NCBI GenBank assembly: GCA_964567265.1
Contig: CAZMLK010000002.1
Span: forward strand, 138,813-202,812
Length of the DNA: 64,000 nt
Direction of reading: 5' to 3'
Source: an uncultured Candidatus Saccharibacteria bacterium
Lineage (GTDB): Bacteria; Patescibacteriota; Minisyncoccia; Phycocordibacterales; UBA12088
The notes under the pieces are model-generated. The model made no database searches. It was not told where the DNA came from and was given only the letters and a program-made list of their open reading frames with translations. Positions 2,087 to 60,241 of this stretch are shown here, in pieces. Numbering within the stretch: position 1 is the stretch's first letter; each line of letters starts with the position of its first letter. The translations under genes and the position numbers were made by a program.

Positions 2087-2377
2087 CTACACTCCCTTTC
2101 CTCCGTCACCTTCAGTCGCAGGCCGGACCTGGATGGGACTCGGCACGCCGTCCGACGGAAGCTCCGTTTCGAGGACGCCGTGTCGTTCCTCATACTCTTT
2201 CATGTTTTTCTGGAGCAAGAGGAGGAACCGCTTCGCATGTTTCGGTGACAAGATGTAGGGCGCGATGTGGTCGCCCGAACGGAGGACGAAATAGACTTCC
2301 TCGCCGGATGGTGGCAAGAGAAGTGCGATGTTGTCGCAGTAGATCCGTTCAGGTTCCATATGTTTTTCTGGCGGCAT
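2087..2377 (-). CDS. Small hypothetical protein, DUF3467-like by recollection
   Basis: ORF 2087-2434; start placed at internal Met (MPPEKHMEPERIY...); block SPKHAKRFLLLLQKNMKEYEERHG resembles DUF3467 family; start uncertain. Confidence 0.4.
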   Translation of the reverse strand: MPPEKHMEPERIYCDNIALLLPPSGEEVYFVLRSGDHIAPYILSPKHAKRFLLLLQKNMKEYEERHGVLETELPSDGVPSPIQVRPATEGDGGKGV

Positions 2378-2488
2378 GCTGTGTGTGCTTATCGAATACC
2401 TGTTCTGTATGCGCCCATTTTGAAACGATGTCAACGGAGGATTCGTATGCTAGGATACCCCCAGCCATAGAAAGAAAGGAGTCACCCT

Positions 2489-3172
2489 ATGAGTACGGCC
2501 GAAAGACAGACCGCGTTGATTGTAGGAGGTACTTCCGGCATAGGTTTCGAGCTCGCCTTGAAGCTCGTCGGAACTCACGATGTCATCGTGACGGGACGTC
2601 ATAACCCAAACCGGCAGGATCTCGAATATCTCCCTCTGAATCTGGATGGACTGCAGGTGAATGCAGACATTGCAAAAGTCTGTGCCACTCTTCCGAAGAT
2701 AGACTGTTTCATATATGCCGCTGGGTATCAGCAACCTCAGACAATTGCCGGACTTACAGAGCGAGACATTGATTCGATGACGAGCGTCGGCTTCACCGCC
2801 TGCGCAAAAATTATTGCACGGATACTACGCGAGCAGGACCACTTGCCGGGGCTCATACTGATCAGTTCTTCTGCACAGTGGAAGCCGCTCGAGCGACATA
2901 TTCTGTATCGGGTCACGAAGCATGCGCTCGGGTATCTTGGTGAGTGCCTCTCACTCGATCCCGCTATCAGCAAGGTCCTGGTGTTCGGACCTGGTGGGGT
3001 GAACGGTACGGGATTCCGCAAAGACCACGTACCTGGATACATGGACGCGTCGGTAGTGGCAGATGCAATACTATATGCGTTCAATGAGGACATCCCCGGT
3101 GCTCCATTCAAGTACCGTGAAGTAGAGATGCCCCATGATACCGGCATTCCGCGCACACATCAGTGCCGTTAA
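2489..3172 (+). CDS. Short-chain dehydrogenase/reductase (SDR) family oxidoreductase
   Basis: 227 aa; Rossmann motif VGGTSGIGFELA, catalytic YRVTK (YxxxK); AGGAG Shine-Dalgarno 8 nt upstream. Confidence 0.85.
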   Translation: MSTAERQTALIVGGTSGIGFELALKLVGTHDVIVTGRHNPNRQDLEYLPLNLDGLQVNADIAKVCATLPKIDCFIYAAGYQQPQTIAGLTERDIDSMTSVGFTACAKIIARILREQDHLPGLILISSSAQWKPLERHILYRVTKHALGYLGECLSLDPAISKVLVFGPGGVNGTGFRKDHVPGYMDASVVADAILYAFNEDIPGAPFKYREVEMPHDTGIPRTHQCR

Positions 3173-3259
3173 GATCTCGCGCACACCTCTCTCTGGGCAA
3201 CCAGCGAGAGGTGCTTTTTTGATACTCGCCAAAATTTTTGGGAAGCGTAGACTGAATGC

Positions 3260-4429
3260 ATGCAACCGCTCGCTGCAAAGATCAGGCCGGAATCACTCGA
3301 CGACTATGTAGGGCAGGATCATTTGGTCGGGGCAGGGAAGCCGCTCCGGATCGCGATCGAGAACCAGCACCGCTTCTCATTCATCCTGTGGGGCCCGCCC
3401 GGTTCCGGAAAGACGACGCTCGCGCGCATCTATGCACGTGCGCTTGATGCACACCTCCATGAGCTCTCTGCTGTCTCTGCCGGCAAGGAAGATATCCGTC
3501 AGCTCTTGAAAGAAGATACGGGCGGCAAGCCGCGCGTGCTTTTCCTCGATGAGATCCATCGGTTCAATAAAGCGCAGCAGGATTTTCTCTTGCCGTATGT
3601 CGAGTCGGGCGAGATCACCTTGATCGGCGCAACGACCGAGAATCCGAGTTTTGAAATCATCCCTGCGCTCCTTTCGCGGGCGCGCGTGTTCGTGCTCTAC
3701 GCGGTCTCGCCGGACGGCATGCGCCGCATACTGCATCGTGCCGGATACGACATCCCCGACGAAGCGCTCGACTGGCTCGTGGAGATGGCGAATGGTGATG
3801 CGCGCGCCGCGCTCTCCGTTCTTGGAAATGCGAAGGAGCTCTACGGCGACATCACGCTGTCGTCGCTGAAGGAATCGCTGCAGTCCACCTTCCTCCGGTA
3901 CGACAAGAAGGGTGAGGAACACTACGATACCGTGAGCGCGTTCATAAAAAGCATGCGCGCCTCGCAACCCGACGCCGCGCTCTACTATCTGTCGCGCATG
4001 CTCCAGGGCGGCGAGGACCCGAAGTTCATCGCGAGGCGCATGGTCATCTTCGCGTCCGAAGACATCGGGCTCGCCCAGCCGACCGCACTCGTCGTCGCAA
4101 ACGAAGTCTTCCGCGCGTGCGAGATCATCGGCCTTCCGGAATGTGCGATCAATCTCGCGCACGGCGTCGCGTATCTCGCGCTCGCCAAGAAGGACCGGTC
4201 GGCATACGATGCGCTCCGCGAAGCGGAAGCAGATGCGAAGAAGCACGGCAATCTCCCGATTCCGCTTCCGCTCAGGAATGCGCCGACCAAGCTCATGAAA
4301 GACCTCAAGTATGGAAAGGGGTACGAGATGTACAGTGCCGAATCATTCCTGCCTGAAAAATTAAAAGGAAAGAAATATCTGAAGGACGGCGTTCCGAAAT
4401 CAAAGAAGAAGCCGGATGCTGACATATGA
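3260..4429 (+). CDS. rarA: Replication-associated recombination protein A (AAA+ ATPase RarA/MgsA)
   Basis: 389 aa; Walker [10 protein letters not shown], Walker [12 protein letters not shown], MgsA C-terminal block [27 protein letters not shown]; TAGACT -10 ends 6 nt before ATG. Confidence 0.9.
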
Positions 4430-11410: not shown

Positions 11411-11682
11411 TGGATTTCGATTGATCCTTCAACGGCGGCGCCAGCTCCCGGACACTCAGCAAAGCTGCAGTTCGGGCCCGTGCGGCTTACATAACTTCCA
11501 TCCGGGCACTGCTTCGCGTCCTGTGTACAGATCTGACCGCCCGTGAATTCCTCGGGACCATTTCCTATCCCGCGATTTACCTTTGCCGCATAGAGCGCGA
11601 GGACGCCGACCCCGAAGAGAAGGAGGCCGACCACGATCATGATAAAGAGTGAATGAGGCTTCATGCGGGTCATACGATTCAA
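11407..11682 (-). CDS. Small membrane-anchored protein with the same 4-Cys module
   Basis: 91 aa; TM then ICTQDAKQCPDGSYVSRTGPNCSFAECPG; 32-nt DNA identity with downstream paralog; 4-nt overlap with next gene. Confidence 0.55.
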   Translation of the reverse strand: MNRMTRMKPHSLFIMIVVGLLLFGVGVLALYAAKVNRGIGNGPEEFTGGQICTQDAKQCPDGSYVSRTGPNCSFAECPGAGAAVEGSIEIQ

Positions 11683-11684
11683 GA

Positions 11685-12074
11685 TTACGAAATAAGGGTA
11701 CTAAAATATCCCTGCGAGAAATATGCACCTGCGAGGCCGACAATGACCGCGACGACGAAGTACGCGAAACTCTTGAGAGTCCGGACCGACGACAGCTGCC
11801 TGACGACCATGCCCCCCAAGGGAGCAAGGATGATGTACGGGGCCGCCATTGTCGCGAATCCGTATGCCGCCATCTGTCCGCCATTATAGCCTGAGAGCTT
11901 GATAATTTCCCCGGCCAGCTTCGATCCATACTCGAGGACCTCCTTCGGGCCGAAGAAGAGCATGAGACCGGCAACGAATCCGAACGCGATATTGATAATG
12001 ATGCTGAGCAGGTTAGTTTCATCCGGAGACGCGAACGCATTCGGCATCATGGGGTTCATCTGGAACGGGTCCAT
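11685..12074 (-). CDS. Hypothetical integral membrane protein
   Basis: 129 aa with four hydrophobic segments; tightly packed upstream of the two 4-Cys genes (probable operon). Confidence 0.5.
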   Translation of the reverse strand: MDPFQMNPMMPNAFASPDETNLLSIIINIAFGFVAGLMLFFGPKEVLEYGSKLAGEIIKLSGYNGGQMAAYGFATMAAPYIILAPLGGMVVRQLSSVRTLKSFAYFVVAVIVGLAGAYFSQGYFSTLIS

Positions 12075-50433: not shown

Positions 50434-51069
50434 ATGACTAGGTCCACAGAGGAATCACTTGAAATCATCTCAAACCAATTTGTCGTGAAGCGTCGGTTTA
50501 CCACGGGTACATTCAACCTTATATTGGGTGCGGTACTAGGCGCCACTTTGACTTTTTTAGTAGGAGCTATTAATTCTTACATCTCCAACCAAACCTTACG
50601 TCAAGCGGTTGCAAAGAGCATCTACATTGAAATTGAGCATAATAAAATTTTTTTAAATAGCTCTGTATCTGATTTAAACAGCGCAGTTTTAGATTGGAAA
50701 GGCAACAAAGGAAATAAATTAAATATGCAAGTATTCGCCCTGCATAGAGAAGACTTCTACCAAATTTATCTCCAAGATTTAACTCTATTAGATAAAAACA
50801 CTCTAGATGAAACCTACGAATTTTACGGAAGACTTAGGACCATTGATTACCTAACAAAATTAATCACTGATGATTTTGATCTCTATTACAGAAATGAAAA
50901 TCTAATTTCTAGAGCTGATATCTTGTCCCGACTAATGGAATTACAGCAGGATGTGGATGAGGCGCTTCGGAATGCTGACAAAATCCAAAGAGATTTAATT
51001 ACTAAATATGATGTTAACAGTGTTCAGAGTTCCTGTAATCCAACCAATTGTCTAACAAACTCTTGGTAA
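50434..51069 (+). CDS. Hypothetical single-TM protein, strongly AT-rich gene (cassette 5)
   Basis: 211 aa; TM FNLILGAVLGATLTFLVGAI then Asn/Leu/Asp-rich helical region; composition clearly unlike flanking genes. Confidence 0.45.
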   Translation: MTRSTEESLEIISNQFVVKRRFTTGTFNLILGAVLGATLTFLVGAINSYISNQTLRQAVAKSIYIEIEHNKIFLNSSVSDLNSAVLDWKGNKGNKLNMQVFALHREDFYQIYLQDLTLLDKNTLDETYEFYGRLRTIDYLTKLITDDFDLYYRNENLISRADILSRLMELQQDVDEALRNADKIQRDLITKYDVNSVQSSCNPTNCLTNSW

Positions 51070-53841: not shown

Positions 53842-53859
53842 GATCAAGACACGGGAAGA

Positions 53860-53898
53860 AACAAAAGGGCCGCGCGAACGCGCGGCCCTTTTGTTTTT
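53860..53898 (+). terminator. Intrinsic terminator after rplB
   Basis: AAAAGGGCCGCGCG-AA-CGCGCGGCCCTTTT plus GTTTTT. Confidence 0.75.
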
Positions 53899-53913
53899 GA
53901 TTGGAAATGATCA

Positions 53914-53957
53914 TAAAAAGATGAAGCCGCCGGCGTGCGTACGTGCGCCGGCGGCTC
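53914..53957 (-). terminator. Intrinsic terminator of the minus-strand cassette
   Basis: GCCGCCGGCG...CGCCGGCGGC hairpin, followed on minus strand by TTCATCTTTTTA. Confidence 0.65.
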
Positions 53958-53980
53958 TTCAATTACACCCGGAAGGGGAG

Positions 53981-54262
53981 CTATCTTTTGCCGTTCTCGG
54001 CCGATAGCAGAAACGCCGTCTTGTCGTTGCGGACGGGACGCGCAGTCATCCTGTTGCCTGTAAGGGCTGCTAGGAGACGCGCAATCTGCTGGAGCTGGCC
54101 TTCGTCGGCGATCGTCACATCAGAACGCATTCCATCCACCAAAAGGTAGATTTGATTATTGCCCCTCATGATGAGCAGGGTGCCGCCGGGAGCCGAGACA
54201 ACGTCCCCCTCTTGGGGTGCTGTGGATCCGAGCTCACCATTGCATCTCAGTTCACATGCCAC
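53981..54262 (-). CDS. Hypothetical protein inserted between rplB and rpsS (gene B)
   Basis: ORF 53981-54289 begins at TTG; start tentatively at GTG 54262, 8 nt after AGGAAGG; no motif. Confidence 0.4.
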   Translation of the reverse strand: MACELRCNGELGSTAPQEGDVVSAPGGTLLIMRGNNQIYLLVDGMRSDVTIADEGQLQQIARLLAALTGNRMTARPVRNDKTAFLLSAENGKR

Positions 54263-54343
54263 AATTAGTACCTTCCTGCAGTTTTCCAAGTGACATTAAG
54301 AAGCAATCTGACGATTTGTCAAATTTCTTCTTTAGGGAAGCCC

Positions 54344-54381
54344 TAAAAAGATACGCCCCCGAGCTGCTCTGCAGCTCGGGG
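54344..54381 (-). terminator. Intrinsic terminator between the two cassette genes
   Basis: CCCCGAGCTGC-AGA-GCAGCTCGGGG followed on minus strand by GCGTATCTTTTT; a TTGACA box follows. Confidence 0.6.
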
Positions 54382-54390
54382 TACGTGTGT

Positions 54391-54765
54391 TCAGTAGGGG
54401 AGGGTCATTTCTCCCTGACGCGGCATCTGTGGTTCAAGAGGGACGGAGGACTTGAGCTCCTTCAGCTTGCAAACAAGCCTGAACGCCCTACCTATTTCCT
54501 GCGCCATGCGGTACTTCTGCTTGCCCTTCAGCAATATCGGCGTTTCCAAATAGAAGCTTGCTTCTGCCCTGGACCAGAAACAACGTCGTACCCGTTTCCG
54601 GCCAAGTATCCTGATGGCAACCGCAATTGCCACGGCTTCGAAGTAAGGACGCTCGACAACATAAAGCCCTTTGCACCGGATGAGGAGAAACTCGCAATTG
54701 GTCGTGGCATCTCGGCACCCAAAGTCGCGAACGCTCACGCGCTTGGGGGAAAACGCCTTGGTCAT
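54391..54765 (-). CDS. Hypothetical basic protein inserted between rplB and rpsS (gene A)
   Basis: 124 aa, Arg/Lys/Cys-rich, no motif securely recognised. Confidence 0.45.
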   Translation of the reverse strand: MTKAFSPKRVSVRDFGCRDATTNCEFLLIRCKGLYVVERPYFEAVAIAVAIRILGRKRVRRCFWSRAEASFYLETPILLKGKQKYRMAQEIGRAFRLVCKLKELKSSVPLEPQMPRQGEMTLPY

Positions 54766-54861
54766 CCACTTTCCTCCAGAAAAGGCGGTAAAGAACAGCC
54801 GATATTAAAAACTCTATACGCCAATCTGTCAAGGGTAAGGAAAGAGGAAAGCGCCTTTTGT

Positions 54862-54890
54862 TTGACAGAAACCCCCGTTTTGCGTACTAT
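54862..54890 (+). promoter_or_regulatory. Candidate promoter restarting the S10-operon remainder at rpsS
   Basis: CCTTTTGTTTGACA context; TTGACA, 17-nt spacer, TACTAT; 39 nt before rpsS ATG. Confidence 0.5.
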
Positions 54891-54929
54891 GCTTCCCAAG
54901 CTCTCTCGCGAGCTATTTTCTTTACAGAA

Positions 54930-55741: not shown

Positions 55742-56515
55742 ATGACACACATTGTCCATCCATATGCACACCGCCTCGGAATCCTTCGCGAATGGAAGTC
55801 GCGCTGGTTTGCCGGCAATCCGAAGATGTTCGCGGAATATTTGAAGTGCGACACCATGCTCCGTGAGTACCTCACGAAGCGCCTTCGTACCATGTACATT
55901 GGCGGACTCGAGTTCGAACGGAATGGTAATACGCTCCGCATCATCATCAAGACATCCCGCCCGGGCATGATCATCGGACGCTCAGGCGAGGGTGCAACCA
56001 AGCTGAAGAGCGACATCGAGAAGGTCCTCTCGAAGCTCAAGCTCTCTGAGAAGCCGGAGCTCAAGATCGACGTCGAGGAAATCCGCAATCCGGAGGCAAA
56101 TGCTGCCATCGTCGCCTACATGGTCGCTGAAGGACTCGAGAAGCGCCTCCCATTCCGCCGCGTGATGAAGCAGACCATGGAGAAGGTTATGGCGAGCCGT
56201 GATGTGCTCGGCTGCCGCATCGTTCTCTCTGGCCGCCTCGGCGGTGCTGAAATGGGTCGCCGCGAAGAGCTCAAGAAGGGACGCATTCCTCTTCAGACCC
56301 TGCGCGCGGACATCGACTTCAAGCGTGAGAAAGCCTACCTTCCGTACGGCGTCGTCGGCGCGAAGGTGTGGATCTACCGCGGCGATGTCTTTGATGCATC
56401 TTCGAAGGACACCCAGGCCCCAAGCAATGACCGCCGCCCGTCATCATCTGACCGCCGCGATTCAGCTCCTCGGAGCGACCGCCCGCGTTCAAGCGCCCCA
56501 GTAAAGCGCTCATAA
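55742..56515 (+). CDS. rpsC: 30S ribosomal protein S3 with Ser/Arg/Asp-rich C-terminal tail
   Basis: 257 aa; HIVHPYAHRLG, KH domain GMIIGRSGEG, GRLGGAEMGR. Confidence 0.96.
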   Translation: MTHIVHPYAHRLGILREWKSRWFAGNPKMFAEYLKCDTMLREYLTKRLRTMYIGGLEFERNGNTLRIIIKTSRPGMIIGRSGEGATKLKSDIEKVLSKLKLSEKPELKIDVEEIRNPEANAAIVAYMVAEGLEKRLPFRRVMKQTMEKVMASRDVLGCRIVLSGRLGGAEMGRREELKKGRIPLQTLRADIDFKREKAYLPYGVVGAKVWIYRGDVFDASSKDTQAPSNDRRPSSSDRRDSAPRSDRPRSSAPVKRS

Positions 56516-57808: not shown

Positions 57809-58117
57809 ATGAAGATCAAGAAAGGCGACAAAGTAATCGTTTCAACCGGCAAGGACAAGGGCAAGACAGGCTCTGTGCTCAAGGTCTTTCCTCGTGAGGA
57901 TCTCGTCCTCGTTGAAGGGGTGAATATTCGCAAGCGCCATCAGAAGGGCACCCGCACCGGACAGAAGGGCCAGATCGTCGAGAAGGCGATGCCGATCCAC
58001 ATTTCAAACGTGATGGTGAAGGACGACAAGACCGGCAAGGGAACCCGCGTCCAGTACAAGATGGAAGGAGACAAGAAAATCCGCGTCGCTCAGAAGAGCG
58101 CTGCTAAGATCGGCTAA
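57809..58117 (+). CDS. rplX: 50S ribosomal protein L24
   Basis: 102 aa; KIKKGDKVIVSTGKDKGKTG KOW motif. Confidence 0.95.
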   Translation: MKIKKGDKVIVSTGKDKGKTGSVLKVFPREDLVLVEGVNIRKRHQKGTRTGQKGQIVEKAMPIHISNVMVKDDKTGKGTRVQYKMEGDKKIRVAQKSAAKIG

Positions 58118-58126
58118 TCTACCACT

Positions 58127-58660
58127 ATGGAAATGGTTCAGGAAAAACAGAATAGCGCCTTCGCAACCCTCAAGGGAGATTTCGGATACACGAACAAGAT
58201 GCAGTCACCGAAGCTCGTGAAGGTGGTCATCTCGGTCGGAACCGGCTCAAACAAGGATAAGGAGAAGATCAAGGTCATCGAGAACCGCCTGCCGAAGATT
58301 ACAGGCCAGAAGGCTGCACAGCGGACGGCGAAGAAGGCTATCGCCTCATTCAAGACACGCACCGGCATGGTGATCGGCTACCAGGTGACGCTCCGCGGCC
58401 AGCGCATGATGGACTTCCTCAACAAGCTCATCCACGTCGCCCTCCCGCGTACGCGCGACTTCCGCGGCCTCTCCGCAAAGTCTATCGATGACATGGGCAA
58501 CTACACCCTCGGCATCAAGGAGAACACCATTTTCCCAGAGACATCGGACGAAGACTTGAAGGATGTGTTTGGTCTCGCGATCACGATTGTGACGACTGCG
58601 AAGTCGAAGCCGGAAGCAGAAGCCTTCCTCCGCCACATCGGCATGCCGCTTCAGAAATAG
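58127..58660 (+). CDS. rplE: 50S ribosomal protein L5
   Basis: 177 aa; YTNKMQSPKLVKVVISVG, ALPRTRDFRG. Confidence 0.96.
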   Translation: MEMVQEKQNSAFATLKGDFGYTNKMQSPKLVKVVISVGTGSNKDKEKIKVIENRLPKITGQKAAQRTAKKAIASFKTRTGMVIGYQVTLRGQRMMDFLNKLIHVALPRTRDFRGLSAKSIDDMGNYTLGIKENTIFPETSDEDLKDVFGLAITIVTTAKSKPEAEAFLRHIGMPLQK

Positions 58661-58679
58661 ACCCAGAAATTTTAAAGAA

Positions 58680-58720
58680 ACAAAAGGCCCCCGGCGCTTC
58701 GCGCCGGGGGCCTTTTGTTT
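58680..58720 (+). terminator. Intrinsic terminator after rplE
   Basis: ACAAAAGGCCCCCGGCGC-TTC-GCGCCGGGGGCCTTTTGT plus TT, fused to a TTGACA box. Confidence 0.75.
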
Positions 58721-58747
58721 GACAAGCCGCCAAATCATCAGTACCAT
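58719..58747 (+). promoter_or_regulatory. Candidate promoter of small basic ORF
   Basis: TTGACA, 17-nt spacer, TACCAT. Confidence 0.4.
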
Positions 58748-58803
58748 CGATTTTTGGAACGATAGCCGGGCAATTCCGCCCCTATCCATCCGGAGAGTTT
58801 CAG

Positions 58804-58986
58804 ATGCCGACCAAGGGTTCGCCGATGAAGCGGTTCCGTCCGAATCGGGGCCAGCAAACACCAGGACAGCGTGCTTCAGCGCTCCGAAAACTGCGGCAAC
58901 GAGGGCACAAAGTAGCAACCCGGACCATCGAGGACGCGAGACGCGCGGCATATGGCGCTCGAAAGGCAAATTTGACTGCCGACTGA
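58804..58986 (+). CDS. Candidate 60-aa highly basic protein inserted between rplE and rpsN
   Basis: MPTKGSPMKRFRPNRGQQTPGQRASALRKLRQRGHK...; GGAGAG 8 nt upstream of ATG; own promoter and terminator; overlapping alternative frames exist. Confidence 0.35.
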   Translation: MPTKGSPMKRFRPNRGQQTPGQRASALRKLRQRGHKVATRTIEDARRAAYGARKANLTAD

Positions 58987-59012
58987 TCATTCACGCTAGG
59001 AGCTGGTAACGT

Positions 59013-59049
59013 ACACCGGCCGAGGTTCCCTCGGCCGGTGTTTGCTTTT
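59013..59049 (+). terminator. Intrinsic terminator
   Basis: ACACCGGCCGAGG-TTC-CCTCGGCCGGTGT plus TTGCTTTT. Confidence 0.7.
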
Positions 59050-59075
59050 GACAATGGCTGAGAAGGTCGTACTAT
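59048..59075 (+). promoter_or_regulatory. Candidate promoter of 59109 ORF
   Basis: TTGACA, 16-nt spacer, TACTAT. Confidence 0.45.
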
Positions 59076-59108
59076 CGTCAGTAGTGTGCTCTGTGCGGAG
59101 GGGATGAG

Positions 59109-59516
59109 ATGACACAGGTAAGCATGTTCGGGTTGCCGACGCTCGCAGTCGAGATCGTGGGTGACCATGTCCACAGCCTTACGCACTACTTGTTCGAGAC
59201 GAGTCGGATGGTCGGGGAGGATGGGGCCGTTTCCCATTACGCAGCAGTCGTGTACGCCAGGCTTCCGTTCGGATTAGATGCGGTGTATCGGAATGAGGGA
59301 GCTGCCAGCGTTCCAACCAGCAGGCTGATCGAATCCGGCTCCCGTGACCCCATTTTGGCGGCGGTACCAGGGCTTTTCAAGTATCAGGCCGATACGAAAG
59401 CATCCTGGGACGCATTTCTCCGGGAAAAGCTCCTGCCGTATGTGCCTGCCGGCAGAATTCTAGTCCTTTGGATCAGTGAAGACGGCGCCACTGAGACCTC
59501 GTTTGTCGTATCGTAG
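59109..59516 (+). CDS. Hypothetical protein inserted between rplE and rpsN
   Basis: 135 aa, soluble, no motif; GGAGGGG upstream of ATG; own promoter and terminator. Confidence 0.45.
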   Translation: MTQVSMFGLPTLAVEIVGDHVHSLTHYLFETSRMVGEDGAVSHYAAVVYARLPFGLDAVYRNEGAASVPTSRLIESGSRDPILAAVPGLFKYQADTKASWDAFLREKLLPYVPAGRILVLWISEDGATETSFVVS

Positions 59517-59533
59517 CCGCCCCTTGAGACTAC

Positions 59534-59570
59534 GCCGCCGGCCAGGTTTCCTGGCCGGCGGCTCTCTTTT
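59534..59570 (+). terminator. Intrinsic terminator
   Basis: GCCGCCGGCCAGG-TTTC-CTGGCCGGCGGC plus TCTCTTTT. Confidence 0.7.
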
Positions 59571-59580
59571 CCGCCTTTGT

Positions 59581-59609
59581 TTGACAATGTATATTCAGGC
59601 TGTTAGTAT
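59581..59609 (+). promoter_or_regulatory. Candidate promoter restarting the spc-operon remainder at rpsN
   Basis: TTGACA, 17-nt spacer, TAGTAT. Confidence 0.5.
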
Positions 59610-59666
59610 AGCCGGAAGCTCGTTTAGGGCTTTCTTTTTTAGTTAGGCCTCGAAGAAGCACGCCAC

Positions 59667-59852
59667 ATGGCAAAGACATCAGTAAAGGTCCGGGCAGCCC
59701 GGACACCGAAGTTCGCAAGCCGCGTCGTACGACGCTGTTTCCGTTGTGGCCGCAAGCATGCGTTCATGCGCGATTTCGGACTTTGCCGCATCTGCTTCCG
59801 CGAACAGGCTAACGAAGGAAATATCCCAGGAATCAAGAAATCATCATGGTAA
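59667..59852 (+). CDS. rpsN: 30S ribosomal protein S14, short zinc-ribbon type (S14Z)
   Basis: 61 aa; [20 protein letters not shown]. Confidence 0.95.
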
Positions 59853-60241
59853 CCGACCCGGTAGCAGACCTGATCACGCAGATCAACAATGCGAGCCGCG
59901 CCAAGAAGGCGCTGGTGTCGGTTCCGTACTCTGCCCTCAAGTTCGCGATCGCGCTCAAGCTCGTCGAGACAGGGTACGTGAAGACTGCCGTGAAGCACGG
60001 CAAGAAGGCGCGCAAGAATCTCGACATCGAGCTCAGCTACGATGCTGCAGGTGTTCCTCGCATCGAAAAGATGATTCGCGTCTCGAAGCCAGGAAAGCGC
60101 GCATACAAGAAGGTCGCTGACATGCAGCCGGTCAAGGGTGGTATGGGGTCTCTTTTCCTCACCACGCCGAAAGGAATCCTCACGAATGACGAAGCCCGCA
60201 AGGAAAAAGTCGGCGGCGAAGCCCTCTTCACTGTTTGGTAA
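59846..60241 (+). CDS. rpsH: 30S ribosomal protein S8
   Basis: 131 aa; [13 protein letters not shown]; start overlaps rpsN stop (ATGGTAA). Confidence 0.96.

Follow-up and report, generated by a model that had tools for sequence, protein, structure and literature searches.

Two small genes in a putative accessory-gene slot between rplE and rpsN of a Paceibacteria-type genome

Breaks in the str-S10-spc-alpha cluster of ribosomal protein genes, caused by gene insertions and internal promoters, have been surveyed in Gammaproteobacteria and Bacilli; the insertions studied in detail there lie mostly between operons, and replacement of the segment rplE-rpsN-rpsH by recombination is on record for Streptococcus (PMC8046335). 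The locus described here belongs to a stretch of 64,000 nucleotides from an uncultured bacterium (the window; contig CAZMLK010000002.1 of assembly GCA_964567265.1, positions 138,813 to 202,812), the last 9 kb of which carry an S10/spc ribosomal block on the plus strand in the order rpsC (55742-56515), rplP, rpmC, rpsQ, rplN, rplX, rplE, gap, rpsN, rpsH, rplF, rplR, rpsE, rplO and secY. The gap between rplE and rpsN measures 1006 bp (58661-59666) and contains two coding genes, the open reading frames (ORFs) ORF60 and ORF135, and three hairpin terminators, each with a promoter after it (Table 1). As in the surveyed cases, foreign genes appear to have been put into a conserved ribosomal cluster; unlike there, the break falls within the equivalent of the E. 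coli spc operon, is class-wide in Paceibacteria and leaves rpsN with its own promoter and leader. We consider it moderately probable that this operon boundary hosts a safe-harbour islet, exchanged via the ribosomal anchors, with both genes as its accessory cargo, and that ORF60 encodes an Arg-rich, probably nucleic-acid-binding protein. Neither of the two would be a core ribosomal component.

Homologues of ORF135 fall into clusters with 99, 82 and 69% identity, and each contig carrying them (L001-L005) places one between rplE and rpsN/rpsH. The DNA of these contigs aligns over the whole gap, though ORF60 is uncalled there; indeed, ORF60 has never been called as a gene and found no match in a word-seeded search of 5.8e9 proteins, a search that returned only three syntenic orthologues for ORF135. 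ORF60 keeps its frame, its start (ATG) and stop codons and its Shine-Dalgarno sequence in the diverged contigs L003 and L005. The differences are distributed over codon positions 1/2/3 as 4/2/16 in L003 and 15/11/39 in L005, and the proportions of non-synonymous and synonymous differences (pN/pS) of 0.042/0.338 and 0.236/0.699, respectively, translate into ratios of the corresponding rates (dN/dS) of 0.10 and 0.14. ORF135 likewise keeps start and stop, with dN/dS values of 0.23 (L003) and 0.09 (L005). Frames kept at low dN/dS in diverged lineages indicate that both ORFs are genuine protein-coding genes under purifying selection. This bears out two units of a preliminary description of this DNA, namely a 60-aa Arg/Lys-rich protein with GGAGAG upstream and a soluble 135-aa protein. 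Rival frames over ORF60 fared differently: the frame at 58719-59009 (+) has a stop in L005 and a dN/dS of 2-3, the one at 58346-58990 (-) a stop in L003 and a dN/dS of 2-8, and a third at 58800-59237 (-) has stops in L005 and a low dN/dS only as the antisense register of ORF60. Conservation and dN/dS, the comparison proposed in the preliminary description, thus single out 58804-58986 over the two overlapping frames named there, both of which are interrupted and exceed a dN/dS of 1. Public gene calls also miss the 61-aa rpsN in L001-L005, L055-L060, L064 and L069, as they miss ORF60.

The signals around the two genes were conserved as well. The promoter pattern TTGACA-N16-18-TAnnAT, scanned over the whole window, gave 5 matches per 64 kb versus 0.15 expected; three of them lie within 900 bp in the gap and a fourth precedes rpsS. 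The predicted promoters P1, P2 and P3 each match the sigma-70-type consensus at 10 of 12 positions, and their hexamers are kept in L003 and L005 though the spacers are randomised: P1 is 93% identical in both contigs while the adjacent spacers reach 24-44%, P3 is 100% and T3 98% identical in both, and in the comparison with L005 the unassigned spacers after ORF60 and after ORF135 retain 37 and 24% identity. The predicted ends T1, T2 and T3 have the properties of intrinsic terminators, that is, a stable GC-rich hairpin, a U-rich tract and a conserved structure, and a U-rich run follows each hairpin, the tail of T3 (UCUCUUUUCC) being the weakest of the three. The hairpin of T1 survives the sequence changes in L003 and L005 through wobble pairs plus one mismatch, and in the stem of T2 an A-U pair is replaced by a G-C pair in L003, the stem being longer in L005. 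Given its A-tract, GC hairpin and U-tract, T1 is potentially bidirectional; the U-tract extends into the -35 element of P1. Because these signals are conserved amid randomised spacers, three insulated units are well supported in silico, in which ORF60 and ORF135 would each be transcribed as monocistronic, insulated genes and rpsN would restart on its own promoter. The three consecutive terminator-then-TTGACA-promoter units of the preliminary description, including the restart at rpsN, are thereby upheld, with conserved units, a paired stem change in T2 and saturated spacers, and all of the features it listed were recovered at their coordinates. Further sequence is common to other junctions of the block: the flanks of T1 recur at the rplB terminator (53856-53896), and GCCTTTTGTTTGACA at P1 recurs without change in the rpsS promoter region (54853). 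A derivation of the three terminator-promoter units as copies of one module was considered and not established, the shared GTTTGACA being the class-wide promoter consensus.

Table 1 Features of the rplE-rpsN gap, its anchors and related slots (positions refer to the window unless a contig is given; promoters, terminators and leaders are predictions)
Feature	Position	Strand	Identity to L005	Remarks
rplE (uL5)	58127-58660	+		Pfam Ribosomal_L5 / L5_C; final gene of the upstream ribosomal unit, left conserved anchor
T1	58680-58718	+	83%	terminator after rplE; -38.1 kcal/mol, z -7.8
P1	58719-58747	+	93%	sigma-70-type promoter for ORF60; TTGACA-17-TACCAT
ORF60 leader	58751-58796	+	89%	structured 5' leader; -19.1 kcal/mol, z -3.7
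ORF60	58804-58986	+		60 aa; Shine-Dalgarno GGAGAG at 58792-58797
T2	59013-59041	+	74%	terminator of the ORF60 unit; -27.9 kcal/mol, z -7.3
P2	59048-59075	+	75% (hexamers intact)	promoter for ORF135; TTGACA-16-TACTAT; both hexamers kept in L003 and L005
ORF135	59109-59516	+		135 aa, acidic (isoelectric point, pI, 5.2), soluble; Shine-Dalgarno GGAGGGG at 59097-59103
T3	59534-59562	+	98%	terminator of the ORF135 unit, before the rpsN promoter; -31.7 kcal/mol, z -6.0
P3	59581-59609	+	100%	promoter restarting rpsN-rpsH-rplF...; TTGACA-17-TAGTAT, TG ahead of -10
rpsN leader	59614-59640	+	93%	hairpin GGAAGCUC-GUUUA-GGGCUUUC, then U6; AUG downstream without Shine-Dalgarno
rpsN (uS14, 61-aa zinc type)	59667-59852	+		Pfam Ribosomal_S14; opens the downstream unit, right conserved anchor
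ORF60 homologue	L059:3749-3991			81 aa
ORF60 homologue	L060:3095-3391			99 aa
ORF60 homologue	L006:4665-4931			89 aa
Slot cargo of L010	about 2269-3654			RVT_1 reverse transcriptase and bAvd-like accessory protein, a pair like that of a diversity-generating retroelement (DGR)

The nearest species representatives (uL5 57-81% identical) are Patescibacteria of Paceibacteria type, that is, Kaiserbacteria, Adlerbacteria, Paceibacterota and similar. In 39 Paceibacteria loci with both genes, rplE and rpsN are 97 to 3402 bp apart, the distance exceeding 400 bp in 17, and the tight junction of classical spc operons occurs in none of the 39. In most loci, rpsN is without Shine-Dalgarno sequence and is immediately preceded by a promoter of (G)TTTGACA type, a short hairpin and a U-run, which marks rplE|rpsN as a class-wide operon boundary. 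The junction is an insertion hotspot: besides the DGR-like pair of L010, L050 has an extracytoplasmic function (ECF) sigma factor in the slot, L027 a ROK kinase, L043 a PaaX-like protein and L008 a DKNYY protein, and other loci have various orphans. Since unrelated cargo fills the same slot, a position beside ribosomal genes is uninformative on function. In the related loci L006, L059, L060 and L064, the T3 stem CCGCCGG...CCGGCGG is kept while its upper stem and loop vary, and the rpsN leader hairpin with its U6 is nearly identical (one loop base differs). The presence of the T3/P3/rpsN-leader unit in these four loci suggests that it is the ancestral boundary and that ORF135, together with T2 and P2, would be a later addition to the slot.

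The sequences in the slot and those of its anchors have diverged to different extents. The uL5 protein is 100% identical in L001-L003, and the rpsN protein 95-100% in L003-L006. Between L059 and L060, uL5 is identical and the flanks are 90-100% identical, also over the 230 nt that immediately precede the small gene; the coding sequence of that gene is only 25-44% identical, with a drop that starts a few codons in and recovers at T3. Compared with L005, the synonymous divergence (dS) of the window's ribosomal genes (rpsN, rpsH, rplF) is 0.14-0.36 and that of ORF60 and ORF135 is ~2.4. Compared with L003, the two orphans show a dS of 0.34-0.45, comparable to the upper values among the ribosomal genes (0.05-0.41), so that a synonymous divergence ten times that of all ribosomal genes holds versus L005 and fails versus L003. 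The mismatch between the dS of the islet and that of its flanks argues for an islet history different from that of its anchors, and the pattern fits allele replacement, presumably by homologous recombination in the flanks. The window's rpsH was observed to be closer to L005 than to L003; for the orphans it is the reverse.

Codon usage and translation starts also set the two genes apart from their neighbours. CGC accounts for 126 of 160 Arg codons in the ribosomal genes, versus 1 of 11 in ORF60 (Fisher p=5e-6) and 0 of 7 in ORF135. On a ribosomal reference, the codon adaptation index (CAI) is 0.37 for ORF60 and 0.41 for ORF135, whereas the better-supported ORFs of the window reach roughly 0.55-0.8. 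A Shine-Dalgarno sequence precedes both orphans; among 13 flanking ribosomal genes checked, 11 have none and two a weak partial one. Several of the ribosomal genes between 55742 and 62276 start after (A)CACC AUG, and AAG makes up ~90% of their Lys and CGC ~80% of their Arg codons. Elsewhere in the window, the ORFs 50434-51066 (+) and 11459-12040 (-) have a third-position GC content of 0.35 and 0.50 and a CAI of 0.25 and 0.27, respectively, and could be foreign genes or spurious.

ORF60 is strongly Arg-rich (pI 12.0, 16 K+R vs 3 D+E, net charge +13). An AlphaFold2 (AF2) model computed from the single sequence shows residues 1-19 disordered and residues 20-58 as one long helix, with a predicted local distance difference test score (pLDDT) of 80 and no Foldseek match in the PDB. 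With a profile of the three ORF60 orthologues, the best further match came from L006, again in the rplE-rpsN slot (E=0.02, small database). In bridging contigs, chosen for a uL5 ~80% identical to that of the window, the slot protein of L059 matched ORF60 in BLASTP with E=1e-11 and 50% identity over 38 residues. A six-sequence alignment defined the common core R..R..R...(T)PGQ..A.LRK...R...V....L..A...A.G, to which different C-terminal tails are attached: none in the window's clade, one type in L060 and L006 and another in L059. All members are very basic (pI 10.9-12). With the family profile, members were found only in the rplE-rpsN slot, namely in the window's clade, L006, L059 and L060, and in none of ~50 other Paceibacteria loci; the slot of L064, an equally close relative, holds an unrelated Cys-rich ORF of 70 aa. 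For the homologue in L059, the public gene call probably begins too far upstream (104 aa from 3680 instead of 81 aa from 3749, after the Shine-Dalgarno sequence AAGGAAAGG). These alignments and the model place ORF60 in a small, previously undescribed Arg-rich family with a disordered basic N-terminus, a helical core and variable tails.

ORF135 has a narrower distribution. It is absent from the 63 fetched Paceibacteria loci besides those of its own clade, and an exhaustive HMMER profile search of 1.84e9 representative proteins returned its own cluster and no true relative. The repeat protein P0004 (E=1e-4) was judged a spurious relative, the match consisting of a 26-residue repeated motif. A predicted model reached a pLDDT of 42, with fold matches at the level of noise. 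By these searches, ORF135 is confined to the genus-level clade of the window. The preliminary description had called both genes orphans; the term holds for ORF135 outside its genus and only in part for ORF60, for which a small family was found.

In the mechanism that we propose, the ribosomal super-operon would be cut into units: rplE would end at a terminator, and transcription would restart at rpsN, which has a strong promoter and a short hairpin-U leader of its own. Between the terminator and the rpsN promoter, the non-essential spacer would offer a safe-harbour slot. The conserved ribosomal genes on either side would serve as anchors for homologous recombination, by which related strains acquire, lose and exchange what the slot contains. 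The slot in the clade of the window would have received two accessory genes, each as an insulated cassette of promoter, Shine-Dalgarno sequence, ORF and terminator. From its charge and model, the ORF60 protein is most likely nucleic-acid-binding.

Several points weigh against this interpretation. Promoters, terminators and translation are predictions from sequence, and nucleic-acid binding is deduced only from the charge and from a model of one sequence, a type of prediction that often defaults to a single long helix. P1 is as near to the consensus as the ribosomal promoters, which would fit an abundant protein and weakens the argument from codon usage. No clear promoters were found ahead of the homologues in L006, L059 and L060. 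Diversifying selection on function, in place of neutral allele swapping, could explain why the coding sequence diverges so steeply, and L005 is a metagenome contig of 2.4 kb, for which an assembly chimera is a possible source of the mosaic pattern.

Diversifying selection is central to the alternative that survives best, which we nevertheless consider unlikely: the genes in the slot would be cargo of biological conflicts (a toxin/immunity pair, phage defence or anti-defence), with ORF60 as basic effector and ORF135 as its acidic partner, and the hypervariability would be the trace of that selection. The sharp bounds of the hypervariable coding sequence amid near-identical flanks, the swapped C-terminal tails behind a conserved N-terminal core and the neighbourhood of a basic (pI 12) and an acidic (pI 5.2) protein are consistent with such a role, as are the atypical codon usage of both orphans, suggestive of a foreign or accessory origin, and the DGR in the slot of another genome. 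However, the pairwise dN/dS values are well below 1, the genes are split by the terminator T2 and have promoters of their own, unlike typical toxin-antitoxin pairs, and ORF135 is missing in sister lineages that keep ORF60 homologues. Neither protein matched Pfam, NCBIfam, PHROGs, PADLOC or PDB sequence profiles; PADLOC, PHROGs and the toxin/antitoxin families of Pfam gave no meaningful E-value, the Pfam hints being single-member matches with E=0.07-0.15. No relatives of either protein were found by tblastn in phage and plasmid collections or among the viral contigs of IMG/VR, and scans of JGI metagenomes by the DNA pattern of the rpsN leader and by peptide patterns of ORF60 gave no match.

In the preliminary description, position and charge had prompted the suggestion that the 60-aa protein could be associated with the ribosome and specific to its lineage. 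A ribosomal or ribosome-associated protein of the reduced ribosome of the candidate phyla radiation (CPR) would agree with a 60-aa polypeptide of pI 12 that has a disordered basic tail and a helix, as many small ribosomal proteins do, that is under purifying selection, that adjoins rplE in at least four lineages and that is preceded by a strong consensus promoter whose extended -35 region is common with the rpsS promoter. Yet the same slot is filled by unrelated cargo in other Paceibacteria, which deprives the position of its information. A ribosomal protein is expected to be uniformly present and to evolve slowly and in step with its flanks; L064 and ~50 other loci of the class have no member of the ORF60 family, the small proteins of L059 and L060 show no homology over their C-terminal two thirds although L5 is identical, and ORF60 itself has reached a dS of ~2.4 versus L005. 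Its codon usage and initiation context are also unlike those of ribosomal genes, and terminators insulate it from the ribosomal transcription units. No ribosomal-protein match to ORF60 or its family was obtained in Pfam (E up to 10), in NCBIfam or in a PDB sequence-profile search, and a supposed likeness of its N-terminus to bL34 or bL35 (MKRxF.P, KRF) was borne out by no profile search. The suggestion is therefore not supported, and we regard a ribosomal role of ORF60 as improbable.

Still more doubtful is a function of ORF60 as a local regulator, in which an Arg-rich motif would bind RNA, either the terminators T1-T3 or the hairpin-U leaders before rpsN and rpsS, and act on termination or read-through, or the protein would control its own synthesis via its own leader. 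The Arg-rich disordered N-terminus followed by a helix, the setting among three terminators and beside conserved hairpin-U leaders, and the conserved, structured leader over its own Shine-Dalgarno sequence are compatible with this function. The case is purely circumstantial, and many Paceibacteria without an ORF60 homologue also conserve the rpsN leader, which therefore cannot depend on ORF60; no similarity to known antiterminators was found in Pfam and PDB sequence-profile searches. It likewise appears improbable that the ORF60 family represents a new small Arg-rich class acting on the translation or transcription machinery of CPR bacteria, be it as a strain-variable ribosome-associated factor or as an RNA-binding modulator of the terminators and leaders of the cluster, and diversified by conflict, for example with phages or episymbiotic hosts, and not by neutral allele swapping. 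Finally, a non-coding RNA or mere spacer with a frame by chance, as the failure of gene callers to call ORF60 in any public contig, its shortness and its atypical codon usage might suggest, is effectively refuted: frame, ATG, stop and Shine-Dalgarno sequence are kept where neutral sites are saturated, third codon positions hold 16 of 22 and 39 of 65 differences, a dN/dS of ~0.1 occurs only in the ORF60 frame and in an antisense mirror that has stops in L005, protein homologues are found at E=1e-11 where the DNA is no longer alignable, and the same callers also missed the bona fide rpsN.

The leaders of both units deserve a description of their own. In that of ORF60, which is 89-91% conserved, UUUUUGGA pairs with UCCGGAGA to form the basal stem, and the U-run covers the Shine-Dalgarno sequence. 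The same fold is predicted in L005 (z -3.3), and a weaker form in L003, which carries one G-C to A-U paired change. The hairpin probably restrains the translation of ORF60 or makes it conditional. The rpsN leader occurs with different stems (GCUCC/GGAGC, AAGCUU/AAGCUU, ACGCC/GGCGU, GAAGCUC/GGGCUUUC) in L006, L059, L060, L064 and ~30 other loci. This variation hints at covariation, and the hairpin-U leader may represent an undescribed leader of ribosomal genes or a 5' stabiliser. A second type of leader, AGGAGnnAAGUCAYS...YGUGAUACUnnCUC, lies ~30-70 nt before rpsN in L008, L017, L018, L026 and L027, and a third, GCCGCUUAGUCGCAAGGCGAGGCAAACC...AUCAUAACUCCC...GGGGAGU, precedes rpsN in L010, L015, L019, L028 and L048; both may be autoregulatory ribosomal-protein leaders. 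Rfam returned only sub-threshold matches at chance level for 58000-60200, including the rpsN and ORF60 leaders, no match at gathering score in 13 related loci, and none in the seven scanned loci with the second or third leader type (L010, L015, L017, L018, L019, L026, L027).

The rplB-rpsS junction of the window (53842-54914) is broken in a similar way. It contains a terminator behind rplB (53864-53895), a palindrome CCGCCGG...CCGGCGG (53927-53954) and, on the minus strand, two orphan ORFs (53981-54289 and 54391-54765) without Pfam match and with a minus-strand terminator (54381-54357) between them. Before rpsS, a TTTGTTTGACA promoter (54862-54890) is followed by a leader hairpin AGCUC-UCUCGC-GAGCU plus a U-run. 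In L059 (3533-3600) and L060 (2877-2945), an extra terminator hairpin, compared with L006, is located at the rplE end and is flanked by a duplication of ~12 nt of the rplE 3' end (CTTCAGAAGTAA ... CTTCAGAAATAA), which suggests that terminator hairpins can themselves insert with target duplication.

The textbook-invariant S10-spc cluster thus would consist, in Paceibacteria, of independently promoted units, and the cut between rplE and rpsN would double as a slot for accessory genes exchanged by recombination. For CPR genomes, annotation by guilt of association is unreliable at this junction, and binning and phylogeny based on ribosomal markers have to deal with a marker block that contains mosaic segments. 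Small genes at this site, among them ORF60 and rpsN, are systematically overlooked by gene callers, and the observations have some practical value for CPR genome annotation. The locus also provides a compact conserved set of promoters, leaders and terminators for an uncultured class. ORF60 and ORF135 add new narrow families whose individual importance is probably modest.

Literature searches yielded no description of an rplE|rpsN arrangement with promoter and leader, nor of these protein families, and turned up neither proteomic nor cryo-EM data on the lineage. Variable islets and insertions in ribosomal clusters are already known; the specific families and the class-wide break at rplE|rpsN appear undescribed. 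Compared with the small basic ribosomal proteins bL34, bL35, bL36, bS21 and bTHX, ORF60 is alike in size, extreme pI, extended or helical character and ribosomal neighbourhood, and unlike in the missing profile match, hypervariability, patchy occurrence, non-ribosomal codon usage, the presence of a Shine-Dalgarno sequence and transcriptional insulation. Its leader may work like a fourU-type translational switch: as in fourU and other Shine-Dalgarno-sequestering hairpins, a U-run pairs with the purine-rich Shine-Dalgarno sequence in a conserved hairpin. In contrast to these, the leader has no Rfam match and is represented by three distinct sequences with minimal covariation, so that the likeness is one of possible action and not of membership. 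A further parallel is with flexible genomic islets, small variable cassettes that are exchanged by homologous recombination in their flanks and that share the fixed position between conserved genes, the unrelated content across lineages, the sharp identity breakpoints, the mosaic divergence relative to the flanks and the atypical codon usage. Unlike those islets, the slot described here measures only ~1 kb, shows no integrase, tRNA or repeat boundaries, provides each gene with a full promoter and terminator, and lies inside the normally uninterrupted S10-spc cluster.

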